This document shows positions 19,630 through 62,194 of a stretch of 64,000 nt of DNA, piece after piece. Position numbers and translations under genes: made by a program. A model generated the notes under the pieces. It ran no database searches, was not told the DNA's origin, and saw only the letters and a program-made list of their open reading frames with translations. Positions within the stretch are counted from its first letter, which is position 1. The number at the start of each line of letters is the position of its first letter. The DNA lies in NCBI GenBank assembly GCA_003427395.1, contig BFEA01000008.1, forward strand, positions 181,204 to 245,203, given 5' to 3'. This DNA is from Chara braunii. Its lineage: Eukaryota; Plantae; Charophyceae.

Positions 19630-19702
<73 letters not shown>

Positions 19703-21757: not shown

Positions 21758-22129
21758 TGACTATTCAGATTCGTACGAAAATTCTCAGAGTTTTCCAAGA
21801 CGAAGTCAAGAACATTCCCGCACAAGAAAGGACATGTCAGGTCCCGCTCATTCCGGAATTCCTAACCGTCGACCCAAATTCCTAGCGCACTCGCTCATGC
21901 ACGCGTATTTCCCATATATTTCCCGAATTGCAAAAAAAAGATGGAATTCCAAAAAGCGCCCCAAAATGACGAAGGTCTAGAGAGAGACGGGCCTTTCCGC
22001 TCAATGCGCATTGATCCATGGAAACACAACAAGGGGCGTCTTCGGCCTGTTTGCACAGGATAACAAAAATGTGAAGAAAAGAAGGGGGGGGGAGGGAGAT
22101 GGTGCAGGTCCGGAAGCTGGCACGTCACA

Positions 22130-22632: not shown

Positions 22633-25420
22633 TGTGACGCGCTAACCTCACGCCCTGTGCTGTCTTTCATTCGGAGTGTTAGGCGCGCCGAAAGAGGCCC
22701 AGAAAAACAGCAAAATGGGGTGTGCCAAGGATTTTTGAAAATTGAGTGTGGGGATACAGATGGAACTGAAATCGATTGCTTTCGCGCGTCGCGGAATGCG
22801 CGCGCGGGCACGGCGTGACAAGAGACAAATCCAAATTCAATTCAAAAAGTATTTTTGGACTTCCCACCGAGCCACAGCCCGTCGTTTAGAACAGAAAGGC
22901 TTTGGCACGCTCCGCGTGTCTCATTTTCGTATCAAATCTCGTCGTCATTCGATGGTCAATTCTGAGTCCGACGTGGATGGTCTCAGTCGCGTGGTTCTTT
23001 CTTTATGCTCGTCTTCACTCCGCACACGGTAGTGGAAACCCCTAGATTCGTAGCGTTCAAAACGCTGGCATTCGGTGCATAGAGTGCGTGGCCAGTGGGG
23101 TTCTACTGCCGTCCACGGGATGACGATCAACTCGTTGAATGGCAACAATATCGAGTAAGGTGGGAAGTGCGTGTCGATAATGACAAACCCAGCCTCTACG
23201 AACCCTGAACGACGATTTGCTGGAGGGAAGTAATATCATCCGTCGATCTGTGCGACAGCTTCTCGCACGTCCCACTCGCATATACGTGTCCTTTCCTCGT
23301 TGTAAGGAAAAGGTCGTGTTGGGGCGGGAGATACAGGAGGTTGGTGCCCAATCGGAGGGTACTGGTTGGTCCACATATCAATCAATTGGAAAGACCTTGC
23401 GACGTCATCAAGAAAAGAAAACACTTGCGCAACTCATAGACAATTCCCTTCAACCCGAGAGGGAGAGAGAGAAAGAGAAAGAAGACACGTCAGCAGCTTG
23501 ATCATGCATATAACTAAGGGACCGATCCGCGGCTCAGGTTTAATGAGCCAGCGCGCCGTTGATCCCCGAGCGCCTTGTTTCTCGAGGCCGCCTCGTGGTT
23601 GGGCTGCGGATGTCGGACAGCATAAGGCAGATGGCATGCGCAGTGCACTCAAAGCTACAGATCTAAACACTCTTGCATTCTCGGACAAAATCCCGACGAC
23701 AATCGTCTAATCAATGTCAAAGAGACGCGCATTCCCATACATCCATTCACTGTGGAAGATGCGAAAATGAGCCATGCACAGAAAAAGATGGATTGCTTGC
23801 ACAGTACACACGCATCCACCGTTCACAAGACAAGAAAACGGGGTCCTTGCGCGGGAGGATTACCCAGGAAACTAATGGAAGAGTTTCGGAAGAAGTTCTT
23901 TCACGCAAGGAAAGCATACAGATTCATGCTCATCCAGAAGAGGGAAAAAAAAAGAGAGAGAAAGAGAGAGAGAAGCATCGAGACACATTATCATTCAAAG
24001 ATAGAGGAGAAAGGGGAAGGTGAGGGGGGGGGGGGAAGAGAGTCTAGATAGGAGATGACGCAACCCAAAAGAAGGAAGTTCAGAGAGAAAGATCCGCAAC
24101 AACAAAGGCGCATTCGCCGTTAATTCCAATATGGCCCCGGGCCAATAACTCACTCAACTTCAATCATCGATCCTCATACCCGCACCGACGATCCCGATCG
24201 TCGCGTGCTAACTCCCACCACTGCGATCGTCACCCCGCTTTCGTAGACTCGACACAGTTCGCCCAGATCCCACAGTCCGTCGTGGCGATCCAGCGCGCAA
24301 CCGGCCAGCCTATCGTCAGCCCGACAGGACTTTCCGATTAGCANNNNNNNNNNNNNNNNNNNNNNNNNNNNNNNNNNNNNNNNNNNNNNNNNNNNNNNNN
24401 NNNNNNNNNNNNNNNNNNNNNNNNNNNNNNNNNNNNNNNNNNNNNNNNNNNNNNNNNNNNNNNNNNNNNNNNNNNNNNNNNNNNNNNNNNNNNNNNNNNN
24501 NNNNNNNNNNNNNNNNNNNNNNNNNNNNNNNNNNNNNNNNNNNNNNNNNNNNNNNNNNNNNNNNNNNNNNNNNNNNNNNNNNNNNNNNNNNNNNNNNNNN
24601 NNNNNNNNNNNNNNNNNNNNNNNNNNNNNNNNNNNNNNNNNNNNNNNNNNNNNNNNNNNNNNNNNNNNNNNNNNNNNNNNNNNNNNNNNNNNNNNNNNGA
24701 TTGGCGAGCGGGAGTTATCGATGGATTGACCGGGCGTCGTGTGCCAGCCTCAGAGGGTGAGGGAAAAAAAAGGCGCGAGAAGTGGCGCAAGACGGGTCCA
24801 AGATTCAGATGATCAAGAAAGGAAAAGGGGCGCGCAAAGAGCAAGGCGGGAGAGAGAGAGAGAGAAAGAAAACAGTTACAGGGCGAGAGAAAGGGGAGGG
24901 AGAAAGGGAAAGGAGCGTGGGAGGGAGCGATGCGGGGGACAGAGAGGAGACAGCTTTGCACGCGCGGCGCCGTCAACAGAAAAAGAGAAAAAGGCACCGA
25001 AACAGTTACAGCCTAATTCAAAACTGAAATCAACATATCCGCGCGCGAAAGAGCGACGCGGGAAAAGAAAATCCTACGCCTATTCGTATTCGCACAAAAT
25101 TCCGAGAGTTTTCCCCGATGCGACCAAGAACATTCACACACACGAAAAGGACACGTCGATGTTCCGCTTATCCCGGAATTCCCAACTGCCGAGCCCAATT
25201 CCCAGTGCGTTCGCTAAGGTGTACGTAATTTCCTATGTATTTCCCGAATTGCAGAAAGGAAAAGTCGAACCCGGGATTCGAAAAAAACTTCCGAAAGATG
25301 GGGGCCAAAAACGCGGTACCCAAAATCAAGAAAACGAAACGGCGTTTTTATGGGGTTGGTATGATACAAGCACAAAAGGGGTACGAAAGATAGCACGGGT
25401 TCGGGAAGTGGTTCGTCACA
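22633..25420 (-). repeat. E2 3' LTR (~2.8 kb, contains N-gap)
   Basis: Highly similar to 33969-36716, plus 11 extra terminal nt (22633-22643). Confidence 0.95.
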
Positions 25421-25432
25421 TATGTGACGCGC
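25414..25432. other. Palindromic att-junction-like site CGTCACATATGTGACG plus internal copy of the terminal 10-mer, at the position of the PPT
   Basis: Perfect 16-bp palindrome at 25414-25429. 25423-25432 (TGTGACGCGC) is identical to 22633-22642. Confidence 0.9.
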
Positions 25433-25779
25433 AGGGGGTTCCGAAATTATGCGATCTCCTAATTATGTCATGGCGGAACAGAGTGATGCATGAGGAACCA
25501 AGCGTATCAACAAGCGATCCAGCCAGAGTCTATGTTGACGCCAACTGCAATTGCAGTTGTCTGTTGCTGGAATCCTCGATGGTGGTCCAGGTGACGCCAT
25601 CATCGTCCGCTGGTTCTGCGTGTGCTCTGCACCCCAGCTGGTTGTTGTCCGTCGAATCAGAGCGTGAGTTGACGTCATCGTCGATGGCGTGATCTTCGTG
25701 AAGCTTACTGATTCGTGCCGTTTTCCCCTGCTAATTGGATGAAGAGAGGGGGGAGGGGGGGTAGTGATGTGATCGGGAT

Positions 25780-26409
25780 CTACCTCCTAGTTGGAATGGG
25801 CCAATAGAGGCGGTACATGGAGGGGATTTCTCGGGGCCGACGGGGAGGAAGTGGGGGTAGGAAGCGATTCATTCCTTCTATCGTCACCAGAAGCTCCTCA
25901 TATCCGATGATCCGGTGGAAGTGGGGGAAGTGATCGCCGCTGCGAGGGAGGGAAGCAAGGTAGTCGCGATAGAAAGAGGAGAGGGTGCGGAAAAGCGCCG
26001 TTTGGAAGAACTCATAGTGGCGGCAGGCGGGGATTGTCCCCGTGGCAACGCAGTAAACCTCTACCACGTTGCATCGCTCCCATGCAGCGCTGAACAGCAA
26101 GAGATGCCAGCAGAACGTGGGGGCAGCGGATTGAAGGGAGGCGTGGGGGTGGACGGTGGCGAGTAGGCGGGTAGAATAGAAGTCGCGGAAGAGATGAAGA
26201 AGGAAGGGATGGGAAGGGAAGGTGACGGGAGTACGGATCTGCTCGAGGGTGAGGAAATCAAGGGGTTGGCGGGACAGCGTCCAAGGACGAAGGCCTATCG
26301 CCCGCATCGGTACGTGGGCGAACTGGGGGACGGGTTGGGCTGGAGGAGGAGGGGGATCGACTCCGTCTCCGTCGAGCGGTACTTGAGGTGGCGGCTGCAA
26401 GGTCGCCAT
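25780..26409 (-). CDS. E2 accessory ORF 3 (~209 aa from MATLQPPP), unknown function
   Basis: Open frame in the sense of the element between integrase and the 3' LTR, with a globular-looking aromatic-rich core. Confidence 0.5.
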   Translation of the reverse strand: MATLQPPPQVPLDGDGVDPPPPPAQPVPQFAHVPMRAIGLRPWTLSRQPLDFLTLEQIRTPVTFPSHPFLLHLFRDFYSTRLLATVHPHASLQSAAPTFCWHLLLFSAAWERCNVVEVYCVATGTIPACRHYEFFQTALFRTLSSFYRDYLASLPRSGDHFPHFHRIIGYEELLVTIEGMNRFLPPLPPRRPREIPSMYRLYWPIPTRR

Positions 26410-27286
26410 CTTCGGGCTTCGGTAGCTCTGGATCCCTAGTCGGATCGTTACCGATGAGCAGGCTAGCTTTGCTGGCGAACTCCAGCTGGCGCTTCCCGGT
26501 GGCAATTTCTTCGCGCTTTCGCGCCGCTTCCGGATCTTCCGCCTCCGTTTCCGTACGCGTTGCCTCCTCCGGCACGGCTTCCCACTCAGATCCTGTTTCT
26601 TCTTCCTCCTCTTCTCCTTCACTCAGCTCGCCCTCGCTATGTTCACTATAGCTCCCCTCCTCCAATGTTTCCTCGTCTTCATCCTCTTCGTCGTCGTCGT
26701 CGATCACCACTTCCTCTTCCCTCAGATAGAAGGCGTGAGGGATGATATCGTACAGCTTCAGATACTCCTGCCGCGATGGTAGCGTATCCTCGTCCCTAGG
26801 TTCCTCCAAGCACGCAGTCCACTGAAGATACGGATCCAATGATCGCTCGAAAATGTATGGAGCAGGACTGTCGTCACTATGAAAATAGATGTCGGGCGAG
26901 AGATCGTCCGCCAATTGCACGATTGGTGTGATGAGCTCTTGCGCAATCAGCTGGCGGCGCCCCGGCTGTACCGATCCAAAGAGAAAGCCAAGAAGATTGC
27001 CCTCCGCGTTAGTCCTCCAAGCTTGGATGATTAGCAGTTCCGGATTTTCGATCCACGCAGGATGGCCGCTGGTCTGTGTCCACGTCACCTGTATTCTGGC
27101 CAAGCAAAAAAACAGCTCCTCAAAAGTTTCGCGCCACAGCCGCCAATGTCCAGGATTGATAAGAGGGACCGAAAGAGGCTCGAATGAGAAGGAAAGAGAA
27201 GGATGAAGATCGGATTGCCAGAAGGTGGGGAAGAGAGAGGGGAGACCAAAGATAGAGAGAGGAGCGAGAAGATCGACGTGGTTCAT
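26258..27286 (-). CDS. E2 accessory ORF 2 (342 aa; globular N-half, acidic tract, RS-rich tail), unknown function
   Basis: Long intact ORF in sense orientation downstream of integrase. Confidence 0.6.
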   Translation of the reverse strand: MNHVDLLAPLSIFGLPSLFPTFWQSDLHPSLSFSFEPLSVPLINPGHWRLWRETFEELFFCLARIQVTWTQTSGHPAWIENPELLIIQAWRTNAEGNLLGFLFGSVQPGRRQLIAQELITPIVQLADDLSPDIYFHSDDSPAPYIFERSLDPYLQWTACLEEPRDEDTLPSRQEYLKLYDIIPHAFYLREEEVVIDDDDEEDEDEETLEEGSYSEHSEGELSEGEEEEEETGSEWEAVPEEATRTETEAEDPEAARKREEIATGKRQLEFASKASLLIGNDPTRDPELPKPEDGDLAAATSSTARRRRSRSPSSSSPTRPPVRPRTDAGDRPSSLDAVPPTP

Positions 27287-27411
27287 TGGGGATGTGGGAA
27301 GGGGATGAGGGTTGGGATCGCAACTAGCCGCTCACGCGGTGATCGGCGAATATCGCCAAGATCCAATGCAAAGATCGGGATGAGGTTATACCCTTGTCGG
27401 GCGAGGACGTG

Positions 27412-27750
27412 CTACCACATGTTGAACACTTGCTCCGTCCACTCGCGCAGCGAGGTCAAGATCGTGGTATGCCACTGCGGATTGACCGAGCTGATGTCAC
27501 CGCTGAACGCCGCAACCGTGGTAACGTGGCTCGTTCTGGGGCCCGCTCGCCGATGAACTGCGGTTACCTCCGCGAATACCACTGCGTGAGGACTTCCTTC
27601 GATTCGAAACGCAGCGGCGGCACAGATACCTTCGTCGCAGAAGAATCGCATTAATCGGCGACGATCTGCATTGAGTCGAGGGTGACAAACTTGCCGAATC
27701 TCTGAGATGTGGCCATGTGGCTGCAACAGCTGTGCGTCAAGAAGAGGCAC
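27412..27750 (-). CDS. E2 possible accessory ORF 1 (112 aa)
   Basis: Sense ORF after the integrase C-terminus; start uncertain. Confidence 0.35.
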   Translation of the reverse strand: MPLLDAQLLQPHGHISEIRQVCHPRLNADRRRLMRFFCDEGICAAAAFRIEGSPHAVVFAEVTAVHRRAGPRTSHVTTVAAFSGDISSVNPQWHTTILTSLREWTEQVFNMW

Positions 27751-27949
27751 TAGCCTCAGGAGCGATGCGCACCGTGATAAAACTCATGGCGAGGTGGGAG
27801 AGGAGGACGAAGGACAAGAGGGAGAAAGAGGAGAGAGAGTTAGATCGTCGTCGTTCTCTTCGCTTTCCGAGGAAGAAGAGGGAGGAAGATCAGGAGGAGG
27901 AAGAAGACGGAGGTAGGAGGTATGTCGGACAATGGGGACAGAGTTATGG

Positions 27950-29574
27950 CTGGCACTAGCCTCAGGCGCGATGCGCACCGTGTTGGCGCCGTTGAGTCCG
28001 AGCTCGACAACGTGAAAACAGCCAGAAAACTTGGGAGCGAGTTTCCGGTCGCGTGCACATTTACGTACCTGCACTAGGTCCCCTAATTTATATTGATGCT
28101 GGGGCCCAGCATTTCCATTCCGATCCTCGTAGCTACGGACCTATCTACCGTGGGCCAGTTCGGTCATCCTTTGCCTTTTTCGGGCTAGCTTCGGGACGAC
28201 CCGTTCCATTAATTCAGTGTACCTTTTGGCCTTGGCTTTGAAAGTTGTACGCGTGTCTCTACCCCCTGCTTCGGCAATTTCCGAGTTACCTCGGTAGTCG
28301 ACACAGGGGAGGCTATTAGTTCGAAGTTGAAAAGGGGTAAACCCCGTGGACTCGTGAGGGGTGGCCCGGTGGATCCCAACAATTTGATATACGATCTCAG
28401 GCCAAGGACGTGCGTCATGTGCCGGTAAGTTCCTGCGAAGGGCGGTTTTGATCATACGGTTGGCATTTTCGGCCAACCCGTTTGACTAGGACACGTGGGG
28501 TGTCGTATGTCGGAGCGTGATGCCCCTTCGCGCAAGCAGTTCTTCTACCTCACCTTTGAATTCGGACCGATTGGCGGTCACAATTTCTTCCGTATCTAGA
28601 TGGGTATAGAGGAACCGTTCGATGTACGTGGCTATTTCTGCGGCTTTTTGGGTCTTACAGGGATAGACTTCGATGTACTTGGAAAAATGATCTATTAATA
28701 CTAGCAGGATAGAATATTCACAGCGGTTTGGGCCAGGTGGCACGTCGATATCTGTCGCGTCCATACTAACTCGCTGGAAAGGACGCTCTACTTCCGTTGG
28801 TACGATCGTGTTTGGTCCCCGTATAGGGGCGCGATCAGCGGCACAGACCAGACAGTTAGCGACAATGTATTTGACATCATCTCGTATATTGGACCAGAAC
28901 CATCGGTTCTGATCTACAGTTGCCTCCGCGACACGTATTGCGAAATGAGCGGCCTGTTCCTCGTGAGCAAATCGAATCCAATCATATCTCTGGAATGGAT
29001 GGGGAATCGTCAACCACGAGCCCGAACCGTCAGTTTTACGTTTTTCCAAATGGCCGTTGACCCATCGATAGTCCCGAGATCTCTCCGTCGCCCTACGTCT
29101 GTCGTGTTTGGTAAGGTGACCCAATGATAATCCCCCTAATTTTGCCAATAAAATTTTATCCGTCCAAACCTCCGCTCGTCGGTATTTTTCGTCGTATTCA
29201 GGGTCGTCCGTACGGGCGGTCTCGAATCGAACCTCCGTGGGGAGTTTGTTCGTTCTACACAGGGGGCACCTCCACTCCTTGTTATTCGTCCGATATCGAA
29301 CGCAGGCCCCGTGCGCACGATTGACACACGTGGCACATTCTACCCAGTCAACAAACCTGGTTTCGAAAGGACGGCAGTCGACCCCATGGACCCGTGCGAT
29401 GCACGTGCAAAAATAACAGAATTTGTCGGGGAGGGTGGCAAAGAAAGCTGAGGACGTGAGAGGGGCAGCATTAGTAGGAGATGAAGGGGTAGCGGAGGCA
29501 AGTGGGGTAATCATGATGACAGAGAAGGAAGGGATGCAGAGAGGGTAGAATAGACCAATGAGTCCTCGTGTCAC
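27950..29574 (-). pseudogene. PHD finger-integrase (HHCC, DDE core, GPY/F-like tail), broken by a stop at 28486 and further lesions
   Basis: PHD CYFCTC..WVECATCVNRAHGAC..WRCPLC. HHCC H-EEQAA-H..CLVC. Core PFQRVSMD, IDHFSKY, TANRSEF (second Asp lost), NGLAENANR, TPHESTGFTPFQL. Tail KLAPKFSGCFHV. Confidence 0.9.
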
Positions 29575-32282
29575 TCACTGCTTCGATAAGATCTCCACTT
29601 GGCCGTACCAAGGTCCGATCTCTTGTTCGGGTTCGTTCCACGGAATCACCTCCTCACTCTTCGGAACCTTCTCAGGCCGGTGCAGTCGTGTCAGTCCGTC
29701 CGCATTCCCGTGTCTCTCGTGCTTTCGATGACGGATGTCAAAGTCCATGCTCTGCAGCACCGTTGCCCATTGCCCGATCATGCGAGAGTTATCCTTCGAT
29801 TTCTTCAGAGCCAACAAGGGCTCATGGTCAGTTACCAAGGTGAACTTTCGCCCGTACAGGTAAGCGCGGAAGTAGCTGATACCCCAGAGAGCCGCGTCGC
29901 ATTCCCCCGTCGGAGCGTCGTAGTTGCGCTTGCAAGCTGGCACCGATTTGGAGGCGTACTCCACCACACTCTCGAGTCCGCTTGGTCCCACCTGGGCAAG
30001 GATCGCCGAAATTGCCTCTGGCTGCCAGTCAGTGATGAGAACAAAAGGCTTTTCGGGATCCGGTCTTATAAGGACCGGGGCCGAAATGAGAGCGGTCTTG
30101 AGTTTGGAAAACGCTTAATCGCACTCCGGCGTCCAGATCAACGGCTGATCTTTGCGCAGCAGATTCGTGAGGGGTCCCGCAATCGCCACGAAGCCCTTGA
30201 TAAATCTTCGGTAGTACAAGGCCAGGCCCAGAAAGGCGCGAACTTGCATGATAGTTGTAGGCACCGGCGCGTCCCTGACAGCTGCCACCTTCTGTGACTC
30301 CGGCTGGAGTCCCTTGTCTGTCACCACGTGCCCTAGGAAGGAAATGGTGGTGAGGAAAAATTGACACTTCTCAAGCGCCACCTTGAAGCCCGCATCTCGT
30401 AACGCGTGCAGTGCCCATTCGATGTGTTGCACGTGTCCCTCGTAGGAACTTGAATACACCAAGATATCATCCATGTACACAATCACGCAGTAGTTGATAA
30501 TGCTCTGTGCCAACCGAGTCTTTCTCACGAAATTCTGAAAAGCCATGTTTATGGCTCGCTGAAAGGTCGCGGGGGCGTTGTAGATACCCATCGGACATCG
30601 AATCCACTGCCATGTGCCCTCGAAAAGTACAAACGCTGTTTTCAGACGATCTTCTTCTCGAACAAGAAGATGATGGAACCCATGGCGAACATCAAATTTG
30701 TTGAAAAATCGAGCACTCCCAATCGCATCCAACAACTCATCAATCCGGGGGAGGGGGTACACATCTTTGATCATGATATCATTCAACTTTCGATAATCAA
30801 TGCAAATGCGAATCCCTCCAGTCTTTTTAGGCACGATTACTACGGGAAAAGATTAGGGACCTATGGCGGGTTCGATCCATCCATTAACTTCGAACTCCTT
30901 AATCCGCTGAAAAGCGGCCGGTCTTTGAGCTGGCGAGTATCGGTAAGGAACGCAGCTAATGGGTGGATGGTCTCCCGTGAGAATGGCATGCTCGATCACA
31001 TTAGTTAAGCCAATGTCATTATCATGTATGCTCAATACTTCCGCGTACCCGTTTAACACGTAGATTAATGATTTTCGAAGTTCTGCGGGGACGTGACCTG
31101 GCAGGGTGATTGTTGATTCCTCGAAAATCTCAAGGGGCACATCGACCCAATCATCCGGCCGTTCCTACCGATCATGGACACTAGAGAAAACGGAACTACT
31201 GGTGCGAACAGAGAAAACTGTAGCTATCATCTGGGACTCTGCGGGGCTGATCACCTTTGTTTCTTTGGCTTCAGCATCAGTCTCTGAATCAACCGAGGTC
31301 GGTTCCACAGTTAGCCCCGCTAGATCCGTCATTTCCTGCATCAGATCAGGTACGTCACTTACTGGTGCTTCCGCCTCTTGTTTAATCAAAATGATGGTGG
31401 CTCCTGGCGTTAGTAACGTTCTGGGCGGGAAAACAGAAACATCCAAATATTGTTCCATTTGCTGATAACGCGTACGTAAGGACAGAGCTCCTTCGTACAA
31501 GGTGCGAGGGGGTTCCGAATCATCTGTCAGGTCAGATACTTGTAATATAGGTTCCCCAAGCAGGGCCGAAGGATTAACTTGCGTTATCGGAGGCGCAAAC
31601 ACGCTGTCTCCTGAATCCACGTGGAAACTTTGAACAGGGTCGGGGCACACTTGGAATTCCTCGGGAATTTCGTGTTCGAAAAGTTCAACCAGGTGCTTCC
31701 ATTCATCTTCGCTAGGCAGCTCTTCTTCGTATTCCTGTTCCCGGATTCCATCACTGATGTGCGAGGGAGAGCGCTCCTCGGAATCAATGCATTGAATCAT
31801 CCCAATTTGGGCCAAGTTAGGGACCCGTTGAATCGTTCGGGTGGAAACTCGCAAGGGAACAGTTTGAGGCTTTCCCCCAGTTTGCGTGAGCACCGATTGT
31901 TTCGAATCGAAATGCAGGCGTGCGCCCACCGCCATCGCCCAAGGTAATCCGAACAACAAAGAATAAGAACGTACATCTATTACGAGCACGTTAACAAGAA
32001 CGTGTACTCGTCCGACTTTTACAGCCACGTTCTCGATAATGCCTACGATGTGCATTGCTTCCTCGTCGGCAGAGACATAATTGTCTTTGCCAGATTGAGG
32101 AAGAATGGATCCAAGTCGTCCCGTCTTTTTTACTGTATCCAATGATATGGCCACGACAGAAGATCATGTGTCAATAAGGGCATTAAACAGCTTGCCCCAA
32201 ACTTCACAGTCACATTCCGCACTTTTTCACAATACCGGTCGAGCTCGTACGAAGTGATTTTTTTCTGCTAAAGAGATCGCTG
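29575..32282 (-). pseudogene. E2 pol: protease, RT, RNase H with several premature stops
   Basis: Protease ALIDT*SS (DTG mutated to a stop). RT CIDYRKLN, NAPATFQ, YMDD. RNase H FTLVTDHEPL..HGNADGLTR. Confidence 0.93.
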
Positions 32283-33833
32283 CTATACGTGCCGCTTCGG
32301 GTTTAGGTTCTCTCGTGTCCGGCTCGGGGGGTGCAACTCCTCGCTTCCTTCCTTCTTTTTCAACATCCGTTGTATGCGCTGATAGGTAAAGCGCTTTTGA
32401 TTTTTCTGGCAATGTTGTAAAAGTTTACCGTTCGCGGCTTCAGATATGGTGAGCAGATGTCCTCCTGGGATAGGAATGCGAATATCTAGTTGCTTGAGCG
32501 ATTTCAATACATCAATATCTCCTGTCCGAAATTGCAGTCCAGGATTGGATTCGCGATCGACCCATTCGAGATCATTTGGGGCCGATCGGATCGCTCCGAT
32601 CATGCCTGCAAGATGAAGATACTTGAGGGGATCGACCACATCAGCAGCGTCAGAGGAAGAAGCTCCAGAGGTCGACGCTGTTGCCATCGAAGGGGAAGGC
32701 TGCTTTGGGGCATATGCCACGAGTTCTCCTCCTTGATCCGTATCCATCAGGGCGGCCACTCGTCCTTGATTAAGGGCGACAGGGGCCGCAGCAGGGGGAG
32801 GCTGATTACATTTCGACTGCGGACAGTCCCGGGCGAAATGCCTGGGCTGTTTGCAGTTAAAGCACTCGATCTTTCCTGCTGGATTAGCTAGATGAGGGAA
32901 CTGAGGTGCGAACCCTGGAGCAGGCGGGGCAGGTAAGAGTGGAAATGATGCGGGGCCAGGCCGAGCAGGAGCCGGGTTAGGCTTAATTATCCTGCTCATT
33001 ATTTGTTCCATTCGTTCCATATGAGCGGCTTGCATTTGGATCAAGTTGCTCATCCGATCGGACTGCTTAGTAGTGGCCGTATGGATCATTTGGGCAAGGT
33101 GTGAGTTGGTTATGGCCGGCGAGGAGGGTTCGGGTGAGATTCCGCTTTTAACGACTGCGATCGATTGATTCGCCGGAGGAGAGGAAGAAGACGCAGGCGG
33201 GGTATCGGAAACGATCCCACCGGGGAGGTCATGGTCGGGGCGGGGATAAAACCGTTCGACCGCCTGCAGCCATGATCGCCTTTTAGCCGTTACATCCCGT
33301 ATAGTATCTGTGATGTCTTCGTCTCCCTGGCTGATATACTTTTTTGTATCAATCAGGTCCAGTTCCAATGCTTTAGTGATGATAGCCCATAACTGGTGAG
33401 TTTTCAGCGGAACCTTTTTCTGCAGTTTGCCTTTCAATGTAGGACTTCGTAGATGGTCGATGAACAAATCTCGAGCGGATTTCTCGTCTCGCCCGGATTT
33501 GTCCAGCGTGGTTTGAAATCGATCGACCAAATCGGGTAACCATTCCCCTGGTCCTTGTGGCCGATTTTTGAGTACGTACCAGACGGCATCTTCACTAACC
33601 GTATCAAATTGAGCCAAGAAAGCTTGCTTGAAAGTATCCCAGTCTACCCACGTATGTTTTCTAAACCAGTCATGCGACGTATTGCGGAGTAGCAATGTCA
33701 AAACGCGGGGAAAATCGATTGCGCTGTAGTTTTGAGCTTCGACAACTTCTAGCCAAGCCTCGGGGTGGGTATGGTTAGGGAAGAAGGGGAAGGGTGCGGG
33801 GATACTAACGATCACCCTAGTACCATCCACCAT
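32283..33833 (-). CDS. E2 Gag (capsid-like region plus CCHC zinc knuckle)
   Basis: 516-aa ORF starting ~120 nt after the PBS; WDTFKQAFLAQF and CFNCKQPRHFARDC. Confidence 0.92.
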   Translation of the reverse strand: MVDGTRVIVSIPAPFPFFPNHTHPEAWLEVVEAQNYSAIDFPRVLTLLLRNTSHDWFRKHTWVDWDTFKQAFLAQFDTVSEDAVWYVLKNRPQGPGEWLPDLVDRFQTTLDKSGRDEKSARDLFIDHLRSPTLKGKLQKKVPLKTHQLWAIITKALELDLIDTKKYISQGDEDITDTIRDVTAKRRSWLQAVERFYPRPDHDLPGGIVSDTPPASSSSPPANQSIAVVKSGISPEPSSPAITNSHLAQMIHTATTKQSDRMSNLIQMQAAHMERMEQIMSRIIKPNPAPARPGPASFPLLPAPPAPGFAPQFPHLANPAGKIECFNCKQPRHFARDCPQSKCNQPPPAAAPVALNQGRVAALMDTDQGGELVAYAPKQPSPSMATASTSGASSSDAADVVDPLKYLHLAGMIGAIRSAPNDLEWVDRESNPGLQFRTGDIDVLKSLKQLDIRIPIPGGHLLTISEAANGKLLQHCQKNQKRFTYQRIQRMLKKKEGSEELHPPSRTRENLNPKRHV

Positions 33834-33956
33834 TGGTGCCGCGGGTGCAGCCGCACCAGACTAAGACCGGGTTACTGGACGATCCCGACGAACTAGTTGC
33901 GGGCCTCTCCTACCTCTCGCCGGTTCGACTTACTATCATTAGAACCGACACGTGTC

Positions 33957-33969
33957 GGCTCCGATACCA
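33957..33969 (-). promoter_or_regulatory. E2 PBS (initiator tRNA-Met), overlapping 14-bp palindrome CCGACACGTGTCGG at 33945-33958
   Basis: TGGTATCGGAGCC immediately after GTGAGGT. Confidence 0.9.
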
Positions 33970-36716
33970 ACCTCACGCCCTGTGCTGTCTTTCGTTCGGA
34001 GTGTTAGGCGTCCGGAAAGAGGCCCATAAAAACAGCAAAATGGGGTGTGCCAAGGATTTTTGGAAATTGAGTGTGGGGACACAGATGAAACTGAAATCCC
34101 CCGTGTTGGTCCAATGAAGCAAGTCGATTGCTTTCGCGCGTCGCGGAATGCGAGCGCGGGCACGGAGCGACAAGAGACAAATCCAAATTCAATCCAAAAA
34201 GTATTGTTGGACTTCCCACCGAGCCACAACTCGTCGTTTAGAACAGAAAGGCTTTGGCACGCTTCGCGTGTCTCGTTTTCGTATCAAATCTCGTCGTCGT
34301 TCGATGGTCAGTTTCGAGTCCGACGTGGATGGTCTCAGCCGCGTGACTCTTTCTTTATGCTCGTCTTCACTCCGCACACGGTAGTGGAAACCCCTGGATT
34401 CGTAGCGTTCAAAACGCTGGCATTCGGTGCATAGAGTGAGTGGCCAGTGGGGTTCTACTGCCGTCCACGGGATGACGATCAACTCGTTGAATGGCAACAA
34501 TATCGAGTAAGGTGGGAAGTGTGTGTCGAGAATGATAAACCCAGCCTCTACGAACCCTGAACAACGATTTGCCAGAGGGAAGTGGTATCGTCCGCCGATC
34601 TGTGCGACAACTTCTCGCACATCCCACTTGCATATACGTGTCCTTTCCTCGTTGTACGGAAAAGGCCGTGTTGGGGCGGGAGATACGGGAGGCTGGTGCC
34701 CAATCGAAGGGTACTGGTTGGTCCACATATCAATCAATTGGAAAGACCTTGCGACGTCATCAAGAAAAGAAAACACTCGCGCAACTCATAGACAAGTCCC
34801 TTCAACCCGAGAGGGAGAGAGAGAGAGAGAAAGAAGACATGTCAGCAGCTTGATCATGCATATAACTAAGGGACCGATCCGCGGCTCAGGTTTAATGAGC
34901 CAGCGCGCCGTTGATCCCCGGGCGCCTTGTTTCTCGAGGCCGCCTCGTGGTTGGGCTGCGGATGTCGGACAACATAAGGCAGATGGCATGCGCAGTGCAC
35001 TCAAAGCTACAAATCTAAACACTCTTGCATTCTCGAACAAAATCCCACAATCATCTAATCAATGTCAAAGAGACGCGCATTCCCATACATCCATTCGTTG
35101 TGGAAGATGCGAAAATGAGCCATGCACTGAAAAAGATGGATTGATTGCACAGTACACACGCATCCACCGTTCACAAGACAAGAAGACGGGGTCCTTGCGC
35201 GGGAGGATTACCCAGGAAACTAATGGAAGAGTTCCGAAAGAAGTTCTTTCACGCAAGGAAAGCATACAGATTCATGCTCGTCCAGAAGAGGGAAAAAAAA
35301 GAGAGAGAGAGAAAGAGAGAGAGAAGAATCGAGACACATTATCATTCAAAGATAGAGGAGAAAGGGGAAGGTGAAGGGGGGGGGGGAAGAGAGTCTAGAT
35401 AGGAGATGCCGCAACCCAAAAGAAGGAAGTTCAGAGAGAAAGATCCACAAAAACAAAGGCGCATTCGCCGTTAATTCTAATATGGCCCCGGGCCAATAAC
35501 TCACTCAACTCCAATCATCGATCCTCATACCCGCACCGACGATCCCGGCCGCCGCGTGCTTACTCCCTTCACTGCGATCGTCACACCGCTTTCGTAGAAT
35601 CGACACAGTTCGCCCAGATCCCACAGTCCGTCGTGGCGATCCAGCGCGCAACCGGCCAGCCTATCGTCAGCCCGACAGGACTTTCCGATTAGCANNNNNN
35701 NNNNNNNNNNNNNNNNNNNNNNNNNNNNNNNNNNNNNNNNNNNNNNNNNNNNNNNNNNNNNNNNNNNNNNNNNNNNNNNNNNNNNNNNNNNNNNNNNNNN
35801 NNNNNNNNNNNNNNNNNNNNNNNNNNNNNNNNNNNNNNNNNNNNNNNNNNNNNNNNNNNNNNNNNNNNNNNNNNNNNNNNNNNNNNNNNNNNNNNNNNNN
35901 NNNNNNNNNNNNNNNNNNNNNNNNNNNNNNNNNNNNNNNNNNNNNNNNNNNNNNNNNNNNNNNNNNNNNNNNNNNNNNNNNNNNNNNNNNNNNNGATTGG
36001 CGAGCGGGAGTTATCGATGGATTGACCGGGCGTCGTGTGCCAGCCTCAGAGGGTGAGGGAAAAAAAAGGCGCGAGAAGTGGCGCAAGACAGGTCCAAGAT
36101 TCAGATGATCAAGAAAGGAAAAGGGGCGCGCAGAGAGCAAGGCGGGAGAGAGAGAGAGAGAAAGAAAACAGTTACAGGGCGAGAGAAAGGGGAGAGAGAA
36201 GGGGAAAGGAGCGTGGGAGGGAGCGATGCGGGGGACAGAGAGGAGACAGCTTTGCACGCGCGGTGCCGTCAACAGAAAGAGAGAAAAAGGCACCGAAACA
36301 GTTACAGCCTAATTCAAAATTGAAATCACCATATCCGCGCGCGAAAGAGCGACGCGGGAAAAGAAAATCCTATGCCTATTCGTATTCGCACAAAATTCCG
36401 AGAGTTTTCCCTGACGCGACCAAGAACATTCACACACACGAAAAGGACACGTCGATGTTCCGCTTACCCCGGAATTCCCAACTGCCGAGGCCAATTCCCA
36501 GTGCGTTCGCTAAGGCGGACGTAATTTCCTATGTATTTCCCGAATTGCAGAAAGGAAAAGCAGAACCCGGGATTCGAAAAAAGCTTCCGAAAGATGGGGG
36601 CCAAAAACGCGGTACCCAAAATCAAGAAAACGAAACAGGGTTTTTATGGGGTTGGTATGATACAAGCACAAAAGGGGAACGAAAGATAGCATGGGTTCGG
36701 GAAGTGGTTCGTCACA
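33970..36716 (-). repeat. E2 5' LTR (lacks terminal CA; contains N-gap)
   Basis: Matches 22645-25420 and joins the PBS directly. Confidence 0.95.
34189..34728 (-). CDS. LTR-encoded ~179-aa protein with CxxC motif (MWT..PPYSILLPFNELIVIPW..CTEC..LRPSTSDS)
   Basis: Homologous frames in other LTR copies (ORFs 16068, 18477, 22945/23236, 56169, 58479, 59816), with synonymous divergence. Confidence 0.72.
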   Translation of the reverse strand: MWTNQYPSIGHQPPVSPAPTRPFPYNEERTRICKWDVREVVAQIGGRYHFPLANRCSGFVEAGFIILDTHFPPYSILLPFNELIVIPWTAVEPHWPLTLCTECQRFERYESRGFHYRVRSEDEHKERVTRLRPSTSDSKLTIERRRDLIRKRDTRSVPKPFCSKRRVVARWEVQQYFLD

Positions 36717-48737: not shown

Positions 48738-48781
<44 letters not shown>

Positions 48782-53909: not shown

Positions 53910-56900
53910 TGTGACGCACCAACTTTCGGACCTGCGCTATCTTCCCCCCCCCTTTGTCTCTATCTTTTTGTCGAATTTTGGGTGACCATCGGACGAGGCC
54001 TCTTTTTGTATTTTTATGAATGTAATATATGAGACCCTCGGATCAATTTTTGAAAATTTGTCTTTTTTTTTGCGAATTGGGAATTACATGGGAATTACGC
54101 ACGCCTTAGCGAGCGCGCTAGGAATTTGGGTCGACGGTTAGGAATTTCGAAATAAGCGGGATCCGACGTGTCCTTTCTTGCGCATGAATGTTCTCAACTT
54201 CGTCCTGGAAAGGTTTGGGAATTTTCGCAGAAATCTGAATAGGCATAGGGCTTTCCCACGACCTCGCTTTGCTGCGCGGATGTTGTATTTTTCAATTTCA
54301 ATTAGCCATAAGTGTTTCGGTGCCCTTTTTGCCTTCGCGACGACGCCATGCATGCGAGCCTCTCTTTGGGTCGACGGTTAGGAATTTCGGAATAAGCGGG
54401 ATCCGACGTGTCCTTTCTTGCGCATGAATGTTCTCAACTTCGTTTTGGAAAGCTCTGGGAATTTTCCCAGAAATCTGAATAGGCATAGGGCTTTCCCACG
54501 CGCCCGCTTTGCCGCGCGGATATGGTATTTTTCAATTTGAATTAGTCGTAACTGTTTCGGTGCCCTTTTTGCCTTCTCGACGACACAGTGCATGCGAGTC
54601 TCCCCTCCCCGCTTCCCCCGCTGCCCTCGACACTCCCTTCCTCGCGCTCATGCTCCTCCTCTCTTTGTAACCGTTTTCCATCTCCCCATCGCCTTGCGCG
54701 CCTTTTCTCTCTCTTCTTGATCGTCTGAATCTTGGTTCCGTTTCACACTATTCTTCGCGCTCTTCTTCTTCCCACTCTGATCCCCTGCACTGAAACACCC
54801 TGTCGACCTCCTATCACTCTCTCTGGCCAAAGAGACACGCCGTGTAAGAGGGAAATTCCTGATACACAACGATTCTGATTGGCTGCCGCTGGGATCCAAA
54901 CTATGAATCCCCCGCGGGCGCAGTCGCCGCGGGCAGGACCGCGGACCGTGGTCTCCGCCTCGATGCCGTGGTCATGAATGCGATTCTCGGTTATGAAAAA
55001 AAATAAAAATAAAAAAAAATTAAAAAATCTGAAAAAACTAAATGTTATGCCAAAAAATAAAGTGAACAACTTTTGCCTTGAAGTTGTATCAAAACTCCTT
55101 ACCAAATTTGGTATAAAAAACAAACAAAATCCTTTATTTTTCTTATTAAAAGAATAAAGTGAAGAACTTTTGCCTGAGGGATTTCTGTTTTTCATTTTTT
55201 TTAAAATAAAAAAGAAGTCAAAAAATAAAAATAAAAATATACGGTTGTAGAGCGCACAAGAACTTACAAACTCGTATTTTTTTTTTTTTTTTTGGCCTAT
55301 TATCCTAGGAGTTCAAAATGTTGGGGTTTTCAATTACACTAGGCCGCGTGGAGTCGGCCGCCGCGGGCGGGAAAATGGCCCGCGGTCGCGGCTGCGGGTG
55401 ATACATAGGATCCAAAGGATCGACATGGCTTTCGCCGGGCAATCCCTGAGCCTTCTCCTACTCCTCTCTGCCTCAGTCCTAACCCTTCCTAGCATTTATC
55501 CTTTCTTTCGCAGCTATAAATTCAGCAAGCGGTCCCGAAAACCTCTCTCTCGACTCATCAATTCGCTTCCGGGAAGCTGTGGCTAGATTGTATGAAGGAA
55601 GGTGCGAGTCTAAGAGGTTGAGCGGGCTGTGGTCTTGGCGCTCGGCATGCTGGATTGTCCGACGGACTGTGGGATCCGAGCAGGGCCATGTAGAGGCGAA
55701 GTCAGCGGGGTGACAATAACTATGGTGGATTGGCACGTGACGGCCGAGATCGTAAGTGCAAGTGAGATTTGAGTCGGAAGTGATTGAGTGTGTGGCCCGG
55801 GGCCATGGTGGAATTTTATGATAAAAGTGCTTTCTTTTGTTTTTGCTTCAAAATTTGTATCTTTGAATGTGAGTTTTGATCGCTCGACTTTTAAGCCCGG
55901 ACATCTCTGGGCAAGATCGCCTGACATTTTGTGGTTGCTTTCTACTCGTTTCTCCCCTGCCCTGGTTTGCGTCCATCCTCTCCTTCCTCCGGGCACGACA
56001 TGTCATAATGGATGAATTATGCTAGCTTTGCTTCTCTCACTTCGGTATGTGCATGCGGTGAGCCGTGATTAGATATTTTCTTGTGGCAGGATTGAAGGGA
56101 TGATTGGTTGAGCGACTGAATGATCGGGTTGCCAAGATTGTCAGACGAATGATGTATGATTAAGATCTGTGCTTACCTTTGCTGCCATGTGGACTGACGG
56201 CCCCAACCCGACCGGGCGCCAACTTCCTGTGCCCCCACCGCGCCCCTTCTCGGATAATGAGGATAGTATACGTGTATGCGAGTGGGACGTGCAGAAAGCC
56301 ATCGCCAAGATCGGAAGGCGTTACTACTTTCCTCTCGAAACTCGGTGCTCTGGATTCGCTGGTGCGGGTTTTGTTATCATCGATATGCACTTTCCGCCAT
56401 ATTCGTTGTTATTGACCTTTAACGAACTGATTTTCCGTGGGCGGCTGTAGAGCCTCGTTGGCCTAACACTGTGCAGCGGTTGTCGTCGCCTCGAGCGTTA
56501 TCAGGTCAAGGGGTTCCACTATCGCACACGCGGCGAAGACGAACATAAAGAAAAGGCCACTCTGTTGAGGCCCTCCACGTCGGACTCGGAGTTGTGTAAC
56601 GAGCGCCGACGAGACCTCATCCGAAAACGGGACACCACGTGTGTACCCGCCCCCTTTCACGCGAAACGAAGAGCGACGGCTCATCGGGAAGTCCAACGAT
56701 ATTTTTTGGATTGAATTTCCCATAGCTGCGAGTCCCGCGCATGCCTTTTTTTTCTGCCTTAAAACCCGCACGGCGACCTGCTTCTTACAACAATCGGACC
56801 AACACGGGGGATTTCAGTTTCGTTTATGTCCCCGCACTCAATTTTCCAAAAATCCTTGGCATACCCCATCATCGTTGCCTTTCCCGGACCCCTTCCGTGA

Positions 56901-56942
56901 ACCATAACGCTCCGCCTGGAAGGTAGCGCAGGGCGTGAGGTT
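53910..56942 (+). repeat. LTR A (E1 family) with an internal 240-bp duplication (~54125-54600) and a MITE
   Basis: Starts TGTGACGCACCAACTTTCGGACC, ends GCGTGAGGTT without CA; colinear with 56998-59271. Confidence 0.9.
54901..55408. mobile_element. 508-bp MITE with 8-bp TSD (hAT/P-like)
   Basis: TSD GATCCAAA (54893-54900 / 55409-55416), imperfect TIR CTATG(A/T)ATC(C/A)CCCGC, empty site in LTR B (~57720). Confidence 0.88.
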
Positions 56943-56985
56943 CATCATTTGAAGGTCGTGAGCTCGAACCTCACATGCCCCACCA
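56943..56985 (+). tRNA. Captured 3' half (positions 34-76) of a mature elongator-type tRNA-Met(CAT) including CCA; not a tRNA gene
   Basis: CAT-CA-TTTGA-AGGTC-GTGAG-CTCGAAC-CTCAC-ATGCCCC-A-CCA: 43 nt in exact canonical register (anticodon, variable loop, T arm, acceptor strand, discriminator, CCA). Confidence 0.85.
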
Positions 56986-56997
56986 GAGCCTCACATA

Positions 56998-59271
56998 TGT
57001 AACGCGCCAACTTCCGGACCTGCGCTATCTTCCCCCCCGCCCTTTTTCTCTGTCTTTTTGTCGAATTTTGGGTGACCATCCGACGAGGCCTCTTTTTGTA
57101 TTTTTATGAATGTAATATGTGAGACCCTCGGATCAATTTTTGAAATTTTTTCCTTTTTTTCGCAAATTGGGAATTACATGGGCGCGCGCTAGGAATTTGG
57201 GTCGACGGTGAGGAATTTCGAAATAAGCGGGATCTGACGCGTCCTTTATTGTGCGTGAATGTTCTCTACTTCGGCTTGGAAAGCTCTAGGAATTTTCGCA
57301 GAAATCTGAATGGGCATAGGACTTTCCCATGTGCCTGCTTTGCGGCACGAATATGGTATTTTTCAATTTGAATTAGCGGTAACTGTTTCGGTGCCCTTTT
57401 TGCCTTTGCAACGACGCCATGCATGTGAGCCTCCCCTCCCTGCTTCCCCCGCTGCCCTCGACACTCCGTTCCTTGCGCTCACGCTCCTCCTCTCTCTCTA
57501 ACCGTTTTCCATCTCCCCATCGCCTTGCGCCCCTTTTCTCTCCTTCTTGATCGTCCGAATCTTGTACCGTTTCGCGCTATTCTTCACGCTCTTCTTCTTC
57601 CCGCTCTGATGCCCCGTGCCGAAACACCCTGTCGACACCCTATCACTCCTCTAGCCAAAGAGACACGCCGTGTAAGAGGGAAATTTCTAATACACGACGA
57701 CTATGATTGGCTGCAGCTGGGATCCAAAGGATGGCCATGGCTTTCGACGGGCAATCCCTGAGCCTTCTCCTGCTCCTCCCTGCCTCAGTCCTAACCCTTC
57801 CTAGCATCTATCCTTTCTTCCGCAACTACAAATTTCGCAAGCGTTAAAATCTCTTTCTCGACTAGTCAGCCCGCATATGGGAAGATGTGGCTAGATTGTA
57901 TGAAGGAAGGCGCTAGTCGAAAACTCCCGACGAGCTGGTTGTGGTCTTGGCGCTCGGCATGTTGGATCGTCCGACGGACTGTGGGATCCAAGCGGGGCCG
58001 TGCAGAGGCTAAGTCAGCGGGGTGACGATCGCTATGGTGGATTGGCACGTGATGGCCGGGATCGTGAATGCAAGTGAGACGTTCGAGTCCGAAGTGAGTG
58101 AGTGCGTGGCCCGGGGCCATGGTGGAATTTTATAACAGAAGTGCTTTCTTTCCTTTCGGCTGTAAAATTTGTATCTTTGAATGTGAGTTTTGATCGCCTG
58201 ACTTTTAAGTCGGGACATCTCTGGGCAAGATCGCTTGACATTCTGTGGTTGCTTTCTACTCGTTTCTCCCCCACCTGGTCTGCGTCCATACTCTCCTTCC
58301 TCCAATCACGACATGTCATAATGGATGAATTATGCTAACTTCACTTCTCTCACTTCGGTATGTGCATGCGGTGAGCCATAATTAGAGATTTTGTTGTGGC
58401 ATATTGAAGGGATGATTGGTTGAGCGAGTGAATGATCGGGTTGCCTGGATTGTCAGACGAACGATGTATGGTTAAGATATGTGCTTACCTTTGCTGCTAT
58501 GTGGACTGACGGCCCCAACCCGACCGGGCGTCAACTTCTCGTGCCCCCGCCCTGCCCCTTCTCGTATAACGAGGATAGGATACGTGTATGCGAGTGGGAC
58601 GTACGGGAAGCCCGCCAAGATCGGAGGGTGTGACTGCTTTCCTCTGGAAACTTGGTGCTCCGGATTCGTTGGTGCGGGTTTTGTTATCATCGATGCGCAC
58701 TTTTCGCTATATTCGTTGTTATTGCCCTTTAACGAACTGATTGTCGTCCCGTGGGCGGCAGTAGAGCCTCATTGTCCTAACACTCAGTGCAGGATTGTCG
58801 TCGCCTCGAGTGTTATCAGGCCAAGGGATCCCACTATCGCACACGCAGCGAAGACGAACATAAAGAAAAGGGCACTCGGTTGAGGCCCTCCACGTCGGAC
58901 TCGGAAGTTGTGTAACGAGCGCGGATGAGACCTCATCCGAAAACGGGACACCACGTGTGTACCCGCCCCCTTTCACGTGAAACGAAGAGCGACAGCTCGT
59001 TGGGTAGTCCAACGATATTTTTTGGATTGAATTTCTCATCGCTGCGAGTCCCGCACGCGCCTTTTTTTCTCCCTTAAAACCCGCGCGGAGATGGACCTTC
59101 TTCTTACTACAGTCGGACCGACACGGGGGATTTCAGTTCCGTCTGTGTCCCCGCACTCAAATTTCCAAAAATCCTTGGTACACCCGATCATCGCTGCATT
59201 TCCTGGGCCCCTTCCGTGAACCACAATGCTCCGACTGGAAGGTAGCGCAGGGCATGAGGTTGAGCGTCACA
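56998..59271 (+). repeat. LTR B (E1 family) ending GAGGTT-GAGCGTCACA
   Basis: TGTAACG..CGTCACA, preceded by GAGCCTCACA-TA (56986-56997). Confidence 0.9.
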
Positions 59272-59620: not shown

Positions 59621-62194
59621 TGTGACGCCCAACCTCACGCCGACTTCCTGTTTCGAAGTGGGAGAGGGCCCAAAAGTGCGTGAAATGGGTGTGCCAAGGA
59701 TTTTAGGAAAGGGGGGGTGGAGTCCCAGGTTGGAATTGGGATCTTCGGTGTCTAATTCCTAGGACAGAAACCTGAGTGGTTCAGCGAAGCACCAGGTTTT
59801 TCTGTTTGGCGATTCTCAGAGCCGGGCGGCTAGTTTTGTTGACCTTGTTGCCCAGGGCGGGTTCGGATTCGGTGTACGAAGGGAACACATATCCCTCTGA
59901 TTCGAAACTTGTCGTTGGGGGGTCTCGCAGATCTCAGAATCCGATGTAGACGGCCTCAGTTGGAGATTGTGTTCTTGGCGCTCAGCTTCGGAACGGGTTC
60001 GTCGGACAAACCTGCCGACCCGGTAGGTGTAATACTGCTGACACTCAGTGCACGACCTTCGGGAACAGTAGGGGGCTATCACATTCCAGGGGACGACCGT
60101 TAGATTGTGGTAGGGAAGAAGGAGATAAAAGGGAGGATTCAATTGCGATGAATCCTGACTCCATGTAATACTGGTGGTTATGCGTGTCGGGGTAATTCGG
60201 GATTCGAGGGTTTTGTCCCATGGCCTGCTAAAAGTCCCATTGCACACAGTCGATCGTTTTCAGTCTGGCAGGGAAATTCCGGAAGTCTTAGTTTCGATCG
60301 ACGAGAGAGTTGCTCGTTTTCACAGAACCTTCAATACTCGCGATCTCTCAGGTAGTCGCGGTCGGTGATCCAAAATGGAATGCTGATGCCCATATCTCAT
60401 GAGAAAGACTCAATTCATACATTTGTGCGTGCAAGGTGCAATCGGGTCGAAGATGGATCATGCAGACACGCGTATATGTGATGAATGCCTTTTCACAGTC
60501 ATTCATATTTGTGTGTGCACAGGATCTGTCTCGGAACAGGCTGTAAGACTACCAGCTGTGCATGCATCGGTTTATTAAGGAAGACGACATCTACGGGCTT
60601 AATGAAAAAATAGACAGCCGATCAACGCGACATACACAAGAGCATACGTGCGCAAAAGGAAAGGAGAAGGAGCAATTTCCCATACATCGGCAGGACACCC
60701 AATCCATACATACCATAATCCCCTGACTCAGCGATCGACAACATCCATACTTTCAAGGCAATCAAACAAACAATCGATTTTTGCAACCGTCATACATCCT
60801 CTGTCGAAAAGAAATTGACGAGGGAAAAAGAGATAATTCATACTTCAATCGAAGAAAAGAAAATCCGAGATTAACCAAAATCCAAATTATATAGAGGATG
60901 CGAAGAGAGAACACCACTTCAACATACCACTCTCTCTCTCTCTCCCAACGTTTCTCCGATGCGGGCAGTTCGTCACCTTGCACCTACCAGCAACCCGGAG
61001 TTGTCACCGCGCTTAGGCATGCAAGCCAGGTTCGCCCGTGTGCCACAGTCCCTTGCGACCACACGTCAACCCAACATACCCAGCACCAGCCCGTCGGATC
61101 CTGACTCCCTACTCACCCCTGTCTCTACTCGTTAGCCAATCCTCTCGATCGCGCTAACTCCCAAGTGTAGATTAGAGAGCAGATTAGTCGTGCTNNNNNN
61201 NNNNNNNNNNNNNNNNNNNNNNNNNNNNNNNNNNNNNNNNNNNNNNNNNNNNNNNNNNNNNNNNNNNNNNNNNNNNNNNNNNNNNNNNNNNNNNNNNNNN
61301 NNNNNNNNNNNNNNNNNNNNNNNNNNNNNNNNNNNNNNNNNNNNNNNNNNNNNNNNNNNNNNNNNNNNNNNNNNNNNNNNNNNNNNNNNNNNNNNNNNNN
61401 NNNNNNNNNNNNNNNNNNNNNNNNNNNNNNNNNNNNNNNNNNNNNNNNNNNNNNCGCGCTAACTCCCAAGTGTAGATTAGAGAGCAGATTAGTCGTGCTT
61501 GCAGAATTTATAGCACTCGGCATTCAAGCGAGATAATTCCAGGATTACGCTGAAGCAGGAGGAAGAGAGAAGAAGGGAGTGCCTACAGCTGCATGATTGG
61601 GCCAGGGCGTGGGGGACATAGCCACTCTCCACTCGTCGATCCAGTCATGCATCTTCTCGGCCAATGAGATAGACAGAAAAGAGGTGCAGGTTTTAACGCG
61701 CACGAAAATCAAGAGGGAGAGGATTACAGTTACATCTGCGTTCGCCAAGAAGGAGCAAGAAGAGATTACGTTTGCGATTATAATTTGGGCGCGGCGGGAG
61801 TAGAGCGCAGGAAAGGACGCAGCAATGCATGCGCGAGCAAGGAGCATCGTGCAGTTACAACAGCAAAAACCCACGACAAAATTACGATGCCCCCAATTCC
61901 TAACTCAATTAAAGTCCTAATTCCTATATTCTCCCGTATTTCAAAATTCAAAAAGATTTCTCCCGCACTATGATCGTGCCAAAGTTCCCTTCCCCACTTT
62001 TAGCAGAAGAAGAAAGAAGCTACGACAACAGTTATTTCTGCGCTAGCTACGGCGCGCTCCAACTACCAACTGCCATGGGACCGAGTTTTCTCAAAAAGAC
62101 CGGGGCACTTGTGCAATTGGGTCGGCCCCTCCCATTCAACCCCCAGAATACAGCCGCACAGGAAGTTGTGCATTTCAGAAAGTAGTTTGTCACA
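59621..62194 (-). mobile_element. Solo LTR (subfamily of 17831-21757)
   Basis: TGTGACGCCCAACCTCAC..TGTCACA with TSD AGGT (59617-59620 / 62195-62198). Confidence 0.88.

Follow-up and report, generated by a model that had tools for sequence, protein, structure and literature searches.

The 3' half of a mature tRNA-Met, complete with its CCA, is present as a 43-nt copy exactly at the joint between the U5 end of one LTR and the 10-nt terminal sequence, B, that precedes the next LTR in a Gypsy family of Chara braunii. Its value, in our view, is as a scar that supports join-first integration in a Gypsy lineage with split ends. A comparison of the family's sequences suggests that its right end likely forms anew in every cycle, when the ends of the cDNA are joined to each other and integrase cuts the B-TA-U3 palindrome. 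We attribute the tRNA half, with about even confidence, to an accidental jump of reverse transcriptase (RT) from the left end of the cDNA to the CCA of a tRNA, sealed in by the pre-integration joining. The insert is probably a one-off copying accident and not the product of a regular second primer.

The window (the whole 64,000-nt stretch of DNA analyzed here) is repeat-rich eukaryotic DNA whose integrase and RT frames best match C. braunii proteins, at up to 95% identity. It contains one full-length Gypsy element, E2, of the same LTR family as the two LTRs at the insert, LTR A and LTR B, with an LTR that is ~66% identical to LTR B. The domain order of E2 (gag zinc knuckle, RT, RNase H, integrase) is that of Ty3/Gypsy elements, with Pfam matches to zf-CCHC, RVT_1, RT_RNaseH, rve and, at 25 bits and just under the 25.5 cut-off, Integrase_H2C2; no chromodomain was found among the 12 open reading frames scanned. 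Between the E2 integrase and B (25433-28400, minus strand) lie ~2.5 to 3 kb with two open frames of 280 and 357 aa and no Pfam match. Elsewhere, the window holds a 2,481-aa low-complexity open frame (41598-49043, plus strand) with a weak poly(A)-polymerase-like palm match (E 5e-4, below the cut-off), and a 47-nt repeat in seven dispersed copies within an AT-rich stretch (11818-12532).

The outer TG...CA ends, the duplications of the target site (TSDs), 4 bp long, and the primer-binding site (PBS) after the 5' LTR are those of Ty3/Gypsy elements, but the usual matching LTR ends, with a 5' LTR closing in CA, are absent from both E1 and E2. In these two 5' LTRs (2/2), U5 runs straight into the PBS without B; all five 3' or solo LTRs finish in T and then B. 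In E2, B-TA comes directly before the 3' LTR, and T, A and B come after it; 4-bp TSDs lie outside B in all three elements with both ends in the window. This split architecture is drawn from one complete element, two 5' LTRs and five right ends, to which the second LTR family contributes its end motif only, having no 5' LTR in the window. Cutting joined cDNA at both palindromes would free solo LTRs such as the two seen here directly, without recombination. A near-perfect inverted repeat around a U5-like heptamer also occurs outside any LTR end (8644-8670). A metagenome scan with the E2 att motif returned three loci that share the motif only, with no other similarity to the window, and these we take to be chance matches.

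Features of the split-end Gypsy family and of the LTR A/LTR B block (positions in the window)
Feature	Position	Strand	Remarks
E1 5' LTR, interrupted by solo LTR 1, ending at PBS, without B; 3' end beyond window	15828..22129	-	
Solo LTR 1, second LTR family, U5-T-B end	17831..21757	-	TSD GTCA
E2, full-length Gypsy element, same LTR family as LTRs A and B	22633..36716	-	TSD CGCT; LTR distance 0.042
E2 right end: extra A, then B identical to internal B (10/10)	22633..22643	-	
E2 internal B + TA, directly upstream of 3' LTR	25421..25432	-	
E2 PBS, initiator tRNA-Met type, directly after 5' LTR without B	33957..33969	-	
LTR A (U3-R-U5 + terminal T), with 240-bp tandem duplication and later 507-bp insertion	53910..56942	+	
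tRNA insert, copy of mature elongator-type tRNA-Met 3' half, positions 34-76 with CCA	56943..56985	+	sense
B after insert, 10-nt right end finishing in CA; 1 base differs from B after LTR B	56986..56995	+	
TA spacer, center of B-TA-U3 palindrome (uncut att-like site)	56996..56997	+	
LTR B	56998..59261	+	K2P distance 0.114 to LTR A
B at right end of LTR B, plain joint without insert	59262..59271	+	right flank TATG, left flank GGTC
Solo LTR 2, second LTR family, U5-T-B end	59621..62194	-	TSD ACCT

The initial annotation had described the insert as tRNA positions 34-76 in sense orientation, with the anticodon CAT and a CCA that abuts B, followed by TA and LTR B, and the coordinates and base features agree. 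In tRNA register, CAT falls at 34-36, followed by a 5-nt variable loop, a perfect T-stem with a 7-nt T-loop, the acceptor strand, a discriminator A and CCA at 74-76. Eight of 10 canonical tRNA features are present (CCA, 5-bp T-stem, G53:C61, T55-C56, R57, A58, Y60 and Y48), T54 and R37 being the two that fail. This eight-feature pattern occurs once in the window and is absent from 6 Mb of simulated sequence, both strands counted. The best Rfam match is RF00005 (tRNA), 5'-truncated and weak (14.1 bits, E 0.51, gathering score 29), a low score expected for a tRNA half. ARAGORN called no tRNA, and a tRNA scan of 52000-62000 gave no match.

Eukaryotic nuclear tRNA genes do not encode CCA, and its presence, together with the elongator-type features, upholds the earlier claim that the insert was copied from a mature tRNA. 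Its acceptor strand differs from that of the initiator tRNA read off the family's own PBS. The sequence thus supports derivation from a mature elongator-type tRNA-Met and not from the initiator, the elongator label leaning on tRNA features that we take as given. Were the 43 nt to differ from the expected tRNA at three positions, this would fit the age of the A-B block (P = 0.45 for three or more). Introns are common in the elongator tRNA-Met genes of streptophytes (PMC13578239; here and below, sources are cited from the excerpts available).

Read contigs came from four runs of one study, X1 to X4, which is possibly the source of the assembly and so not independent of it; the results concern the matches listed (32 of 1,265 pieces and 24 of 206 loose ends). 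In X1, one contig spans 56929-57031 with 0 differences; it bridges the right joint (57 + 46 letters), with only 14 letters to the left of the left joint under a 31-letter rule. Depth in X1 is 5.24 over the insert versus 694.5 on the U5 end, so that the insert is rarer by a ratio of ~130, and its depth in the read contigs is that of a single copy. In X2, depth steps of 4.83, 14.5, 14.5 and 12.9 are consistent with one additional contig, which covers tRNA positions 45-73 and ends short of the CCA; this contig is known from depth alone and may represent another tRNA or another organism, and its CCA-less end would suit a nuclear gene.

In standard reverse transcription the 5' LTR is the template for U5 (PMC13191261), and as that LTR lacks B in this family, B at the right end cannot come from the ordinary pathway. 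We infer a join-first route from four observations taken together: B is absent from 5' LTRs, present on 3' and solo ends, identical to the internal B in E2, and enclosed by the TSDs. In the series of steps that we propose, the plus strand would start ~10-11 nt upstream of TA-U3 and yield a linear cDNA of the form B-TA-LTR...LTR-T, without CA at its right end. The two ends of this cDNA would then be joined, as a circle or a head-to-tail multimer, and integrase would cut the B-TA-U3 palindrome, drop TA and move B to the right end. The terminal T of the LTR fits the last ribo-A of the primer, which HIV RNase H leaves behind (PMC5618025).

Neither on the U5 side nor on the B side of the insert is a base lost or duplicated, in keeping with the earlier placement of the tRNA at an end-to-end joint, and this exact fit to the bond argues for entry during the join rather than by later insertion. 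Random landing on the U5|B bond of a 2.3-kb LTR without a TSD would occur about once in 2,300. The sense orientation, with CCA against B, assigns the insert to the left end of the cDNA, provided that there was any attachment, and as no primer-binding tract lies upstream of B, a route that needs no complementarity fits best. By the jump that we favor, the 3' end of the minus strand would first have copied the tRNA from position 76 to position 34. Copying may have ended at 34 because of a modified C34 or because the tRNA half had already been cut at the anticodon; modified C34 is reported for human tRNA (PMC13578239). The jump is made less secure by the fact that RT must pass m1A58, normally the main stop, read-through to the anticodon loop being a minor product (PMC13191261). 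It is weakened further by being a single event, for which identical sequence would result from a jump, from ligation of a tRNA cDNA piece or from a primer left uncut, and by the lack of a polypurine tract (PPT) near B, as plus-strand primer, in the family's complete member. Retroviral-type RTs also jump end to end less readily than those of non-LTR elements.

The 18-nt U5|B joint resembles the T-arm of the tRNA in register, matching at 13/18 positions for LTR B and solo LTR 2 (reached by 44 and 63 of 20,000 shuffles, respectively) and at 15/18 for the joint of LTR A (0 of 20,000), in a comparison that was post hoc and between two hairpins. A purely random capture does not predict this likeness and is weakened by it. 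The likeness could explain why an elongator tRNA-Met was near the cDNA end, even though the join itself did not use homology.

Two other readings of the insert, each of them unlikely, would produce the same sequence, and each, like the jump, implies a join-first step. In one, host end-joining took up free cDNA of a tRNA half and ligated it into the joint during the sealing of the two cDNA ends. Such a ligation, improbable as it is, would still mark the join-first step and would be silent as to which end held the tRNA. HIV 2-LTR junctions contain PBS, PPT, gag, nef and unspecified inserts (PMC5618025), independently made tRNA cDNA has been proposed (PMC12220202), and the left join made no use of T-arm homology, with at most the last T of U5 doubling as U33. 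However, a ligated piece would come in either orientation and often trimmed; here neither element end lacks a base, and the CCA that faces B is complete.

In the other, a tRNA would prime the plus strand at B, and the uncut primer would be copied and kept in the junction. We consider this possible but unlikely overall, and distribute it between a one-off mispriming at B, which is quite unlikely, and regular tRNA priming in place of a PPT, which was the proposal of the initial annotation and seems to us highly improbable. The CCA does abut the first base of B in primer orientation, the T-arm resembles the U5|B joint, and E2, without a PPT near B, has a C-tract whose complement can pair with 5 bases of the tRNA 3' end. 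The missing PPT of the initial annotation is borne out to the extent that none lies within ~280 nt beside the E2 3' LTR, the nearest purine-rich 12-mer ending ~285 nt upstream of B; the absence concerns a single element. Against priming, the sequence directly upstream of the E2 internal B holds no tRNA-identical tract ending in CCA: it matches at 5/13 positions in register and at best 6/13 (shifts of -3 to +3), with the terminal base mismatched. The 5-bp duplex is worth -9.7 kcal/mol versus -24.7 kcal/mol for the real PBS (RNA parameters) and is equalled or beaten by 10.6% of 8,518 internal windows, so that replacement of the PPT by a second tRNA is not supported.

Since the E2 LTR is so distant from LTR B, the subfamily of LTR B was also checked in the read contigs. 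Among the matches listed, depth in the bin of tRNA 66-74 is 5.24 in X1 and 0 in X4, versus 92.8 and 158.6 in the adjoining bin, where B lies; in neither run does a contig with B contribute depth over tRNA 66-74, the X1 bin being accounted for by the junction contig only. In X3, the alignment of records 19 and 20 begins at B, with 17 and 23 upstream letters, respectively, falling outside it, the orientation of these coordinates being inferred. The extra A at the right end of E2, which the initial annotation took for the residual 3' A of CCA, is indeed there; but it occurs in only one of four plain joints, and is therefore better explained as an untemplated base or a mutation than as a primer remnant. 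The T expected from the minus-strand primer is present at five of five ends.

A compound of these ideas, in which a PPT-less Chara Gypsy joins its cDNA ends first and recruits elongator tRNA-Met at the left end, as plus-strand primer or as a tether with its T-arm paired across the U5|B seam, so that the insert would record a failed removal of this second tRNA, strikes us as quite unlikely. Entry after integration, or in place of a lost interior, is very unlikely; here the tRNA would be repair filler at a break or deletion joining 5' LTR A to an internal B-TA-3' LTR, or a tRNA retrocopy or SINE. In its favor, the series B-TA-LTR B-T-B matches precisely how a normal element ends on its 3' side, as in E2; the missing TSD shows that the block underwent some rearrangement; and capture of a tRNA in place of deleted viral sequence is known (HITME; PMC12220202). 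Yet both breakpoints would have to hit the U5-T end and the first base of B by chance. A tRNA-derived SINE or retropseudogene, the former named by the initial annotation as what would overturn its reading, is rejected on the lack of a TSD, a tail, a 5' tRNA half and multiple copies, the depth being single-copy. A retained minus-strand primer is rejected, as the initial annotation had held, since the insert is sense and not antisense and its acceptor strand differs from that of the PBS tRNA. A split-direct-repeat tyrosine-recombinase element of the PAT/Ngaro type is rejected because the family has an rve integrase and TSDs of 4 bp.

The A-B block has no matching TSD, its flanks being GGTC and TATG, as first annotated, and its two LTRs differ by a K2P distance of 0.114, against 0.042 between the LTRs of E2. 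In the join-first scheme, this tandem layout would have arisen in an event that came later or was aberrant, and it is compatible with three histories. An element carrying the insert at the right end of its LTR A may have integrated normally, before a deletion through B homology reached into a second element; a permuted integration may have been followed by LTR recombination, the version of the initial annotation; or a multimer may have inserted by one end only, its units then collapsing to solo LTRs. The last would also explain a right flank that continues the palindrome with TATG. The initial annotation had proposed an uncut circle junction with later recombination between elements; this is possible, if unproven: after a normal cut, too, the insert would be found between U5 and B, and no step in divergence appears along LTR A versus LTR B (Fisher p 0.13).

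Two other accounts of the block were set aside. Reading its flanks as a degenerate 12-13 nt duplication is equalled by 4.5-7.9% of 1,500 random pairs, and treating LTR B as a solo LTR with TSD TATG and a TG slip is disfavored, needing a deletion that ends exactly at both boundaries. The flank after LTR B starts with TATG (59272-59275), prolonging a B-TA-TG palindrome, for which the chance expectation is ~1 in 256. Among 1,135 candidates in a protein search, none matched the frame of the left flank. Within LTR A, a 240-bp tandem duplication (54125-54602, 91% identical) is missing from LTR B, and a 507-bp AT-rich insertion (54901-55407) has 9-bp direct repeats (at 54892 and 55408) and short imperfect inverted ends; it resembles a hAT-type MITE. 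Tandem elements described in plants share an LTR, unlike the A-B block (PMC11899658).

Among known systems, PAT and Ngaro are split-direct-repeat tyrosine-recombinase elements without an integrase-type TSD. The Chara family shares with them the layout A...B-A-B, which implies a circular intermediate, but differs in its DDE integrase, its PBS, its 4-bp TSDs and a B of only 10 nt. Captured tRNAs have precedents in a tRNA-Gly between MLV LTRs and in 63-65 nt of tRNA captured in HIV (PMC12220202). Like the Chara insert, the retroviral circle-junction tRNA is a reverse-transcribed, non-cognate mature tRNA at an LTR-LTR junction; that case involved an almost complete tRNA in an unintegrated circle, a dead end, and was explained by spurious priming of the minus strand, whereas the Chara insert is a 3' half that faces the U3-side end and is fixed in the genome. 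The tRNA-Gly beside an HIV provirus and HITME likewise consist of CCA-ended tRNA cDNA joined to a retroelement without a TSD, but these captures are linked to deletions (PMC12220202); in Chara no base is missing on either side, and the insert occupies the joint that is obligate for the family.

The 2-LTR circle junction has been described as an integrase substrate in foamy virus (PMC1180852) and in the 1984 circle-junction model (PMC11054761). As we propose for Chara, integrase there cuts a CA-xx-TG palindrome with loss of the two central bases; in those systems, however, the two ends of the LTRs together make up the palindrome, and the precursor generally accepted is linear DNA (PMC1180852, PMC11054761), whereas in Chara the palindrome is stored whole upstream of U3. 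Joining looks obligatory in the Chara family, as U5 lacks CA and the palindrome lies upstream of U3. Circle-junction integration was rejected for MLV (PMC11054761). Phygy and Selgy, plant Ty3/Gypsy elements that are not chromoviruses, resemble the Chara family in RT-RH-INT order, tRNA-Met PBS and short TSD, and Phygy prefers a 4-base motif; their survey required matching TG...CA LTRs, and its available description contains no split end, the likeness being one of description (PMC6317226). Within the excerpts available, our literature search found neither a split-end Gypsy in Chara nor a tRNA plus-strand primer, and the Chara genome paper may describe the family.

Taken alone, the insert is an accident of a known type, a tRNA at an LTR junction (PMC12220202, as excerpted), housed by an element that is itself unusual. 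A join-first route predicts scars of this kind, with a copy of foreign RNA placed right at the seam. A tRNA plus-strand primer would, if true, be a new step in LTR reverse transcription, but it is weakly supported. Split-end elements such as these would be missed or trimmed wrongly by LTR finders whose rules call for matching TG...CA LTRs. Integration through the LTR-LTR junction was proposed in 1984 and then dropped for retroviruses in favor of linear DNA (PMC11054761), surviving as a claim for foamy virus (PMC1180852). If the reading given here is true, a Gypsy element that has no CA on its U5 and borrows one from its other end would make the junction route obligatory, and testable.
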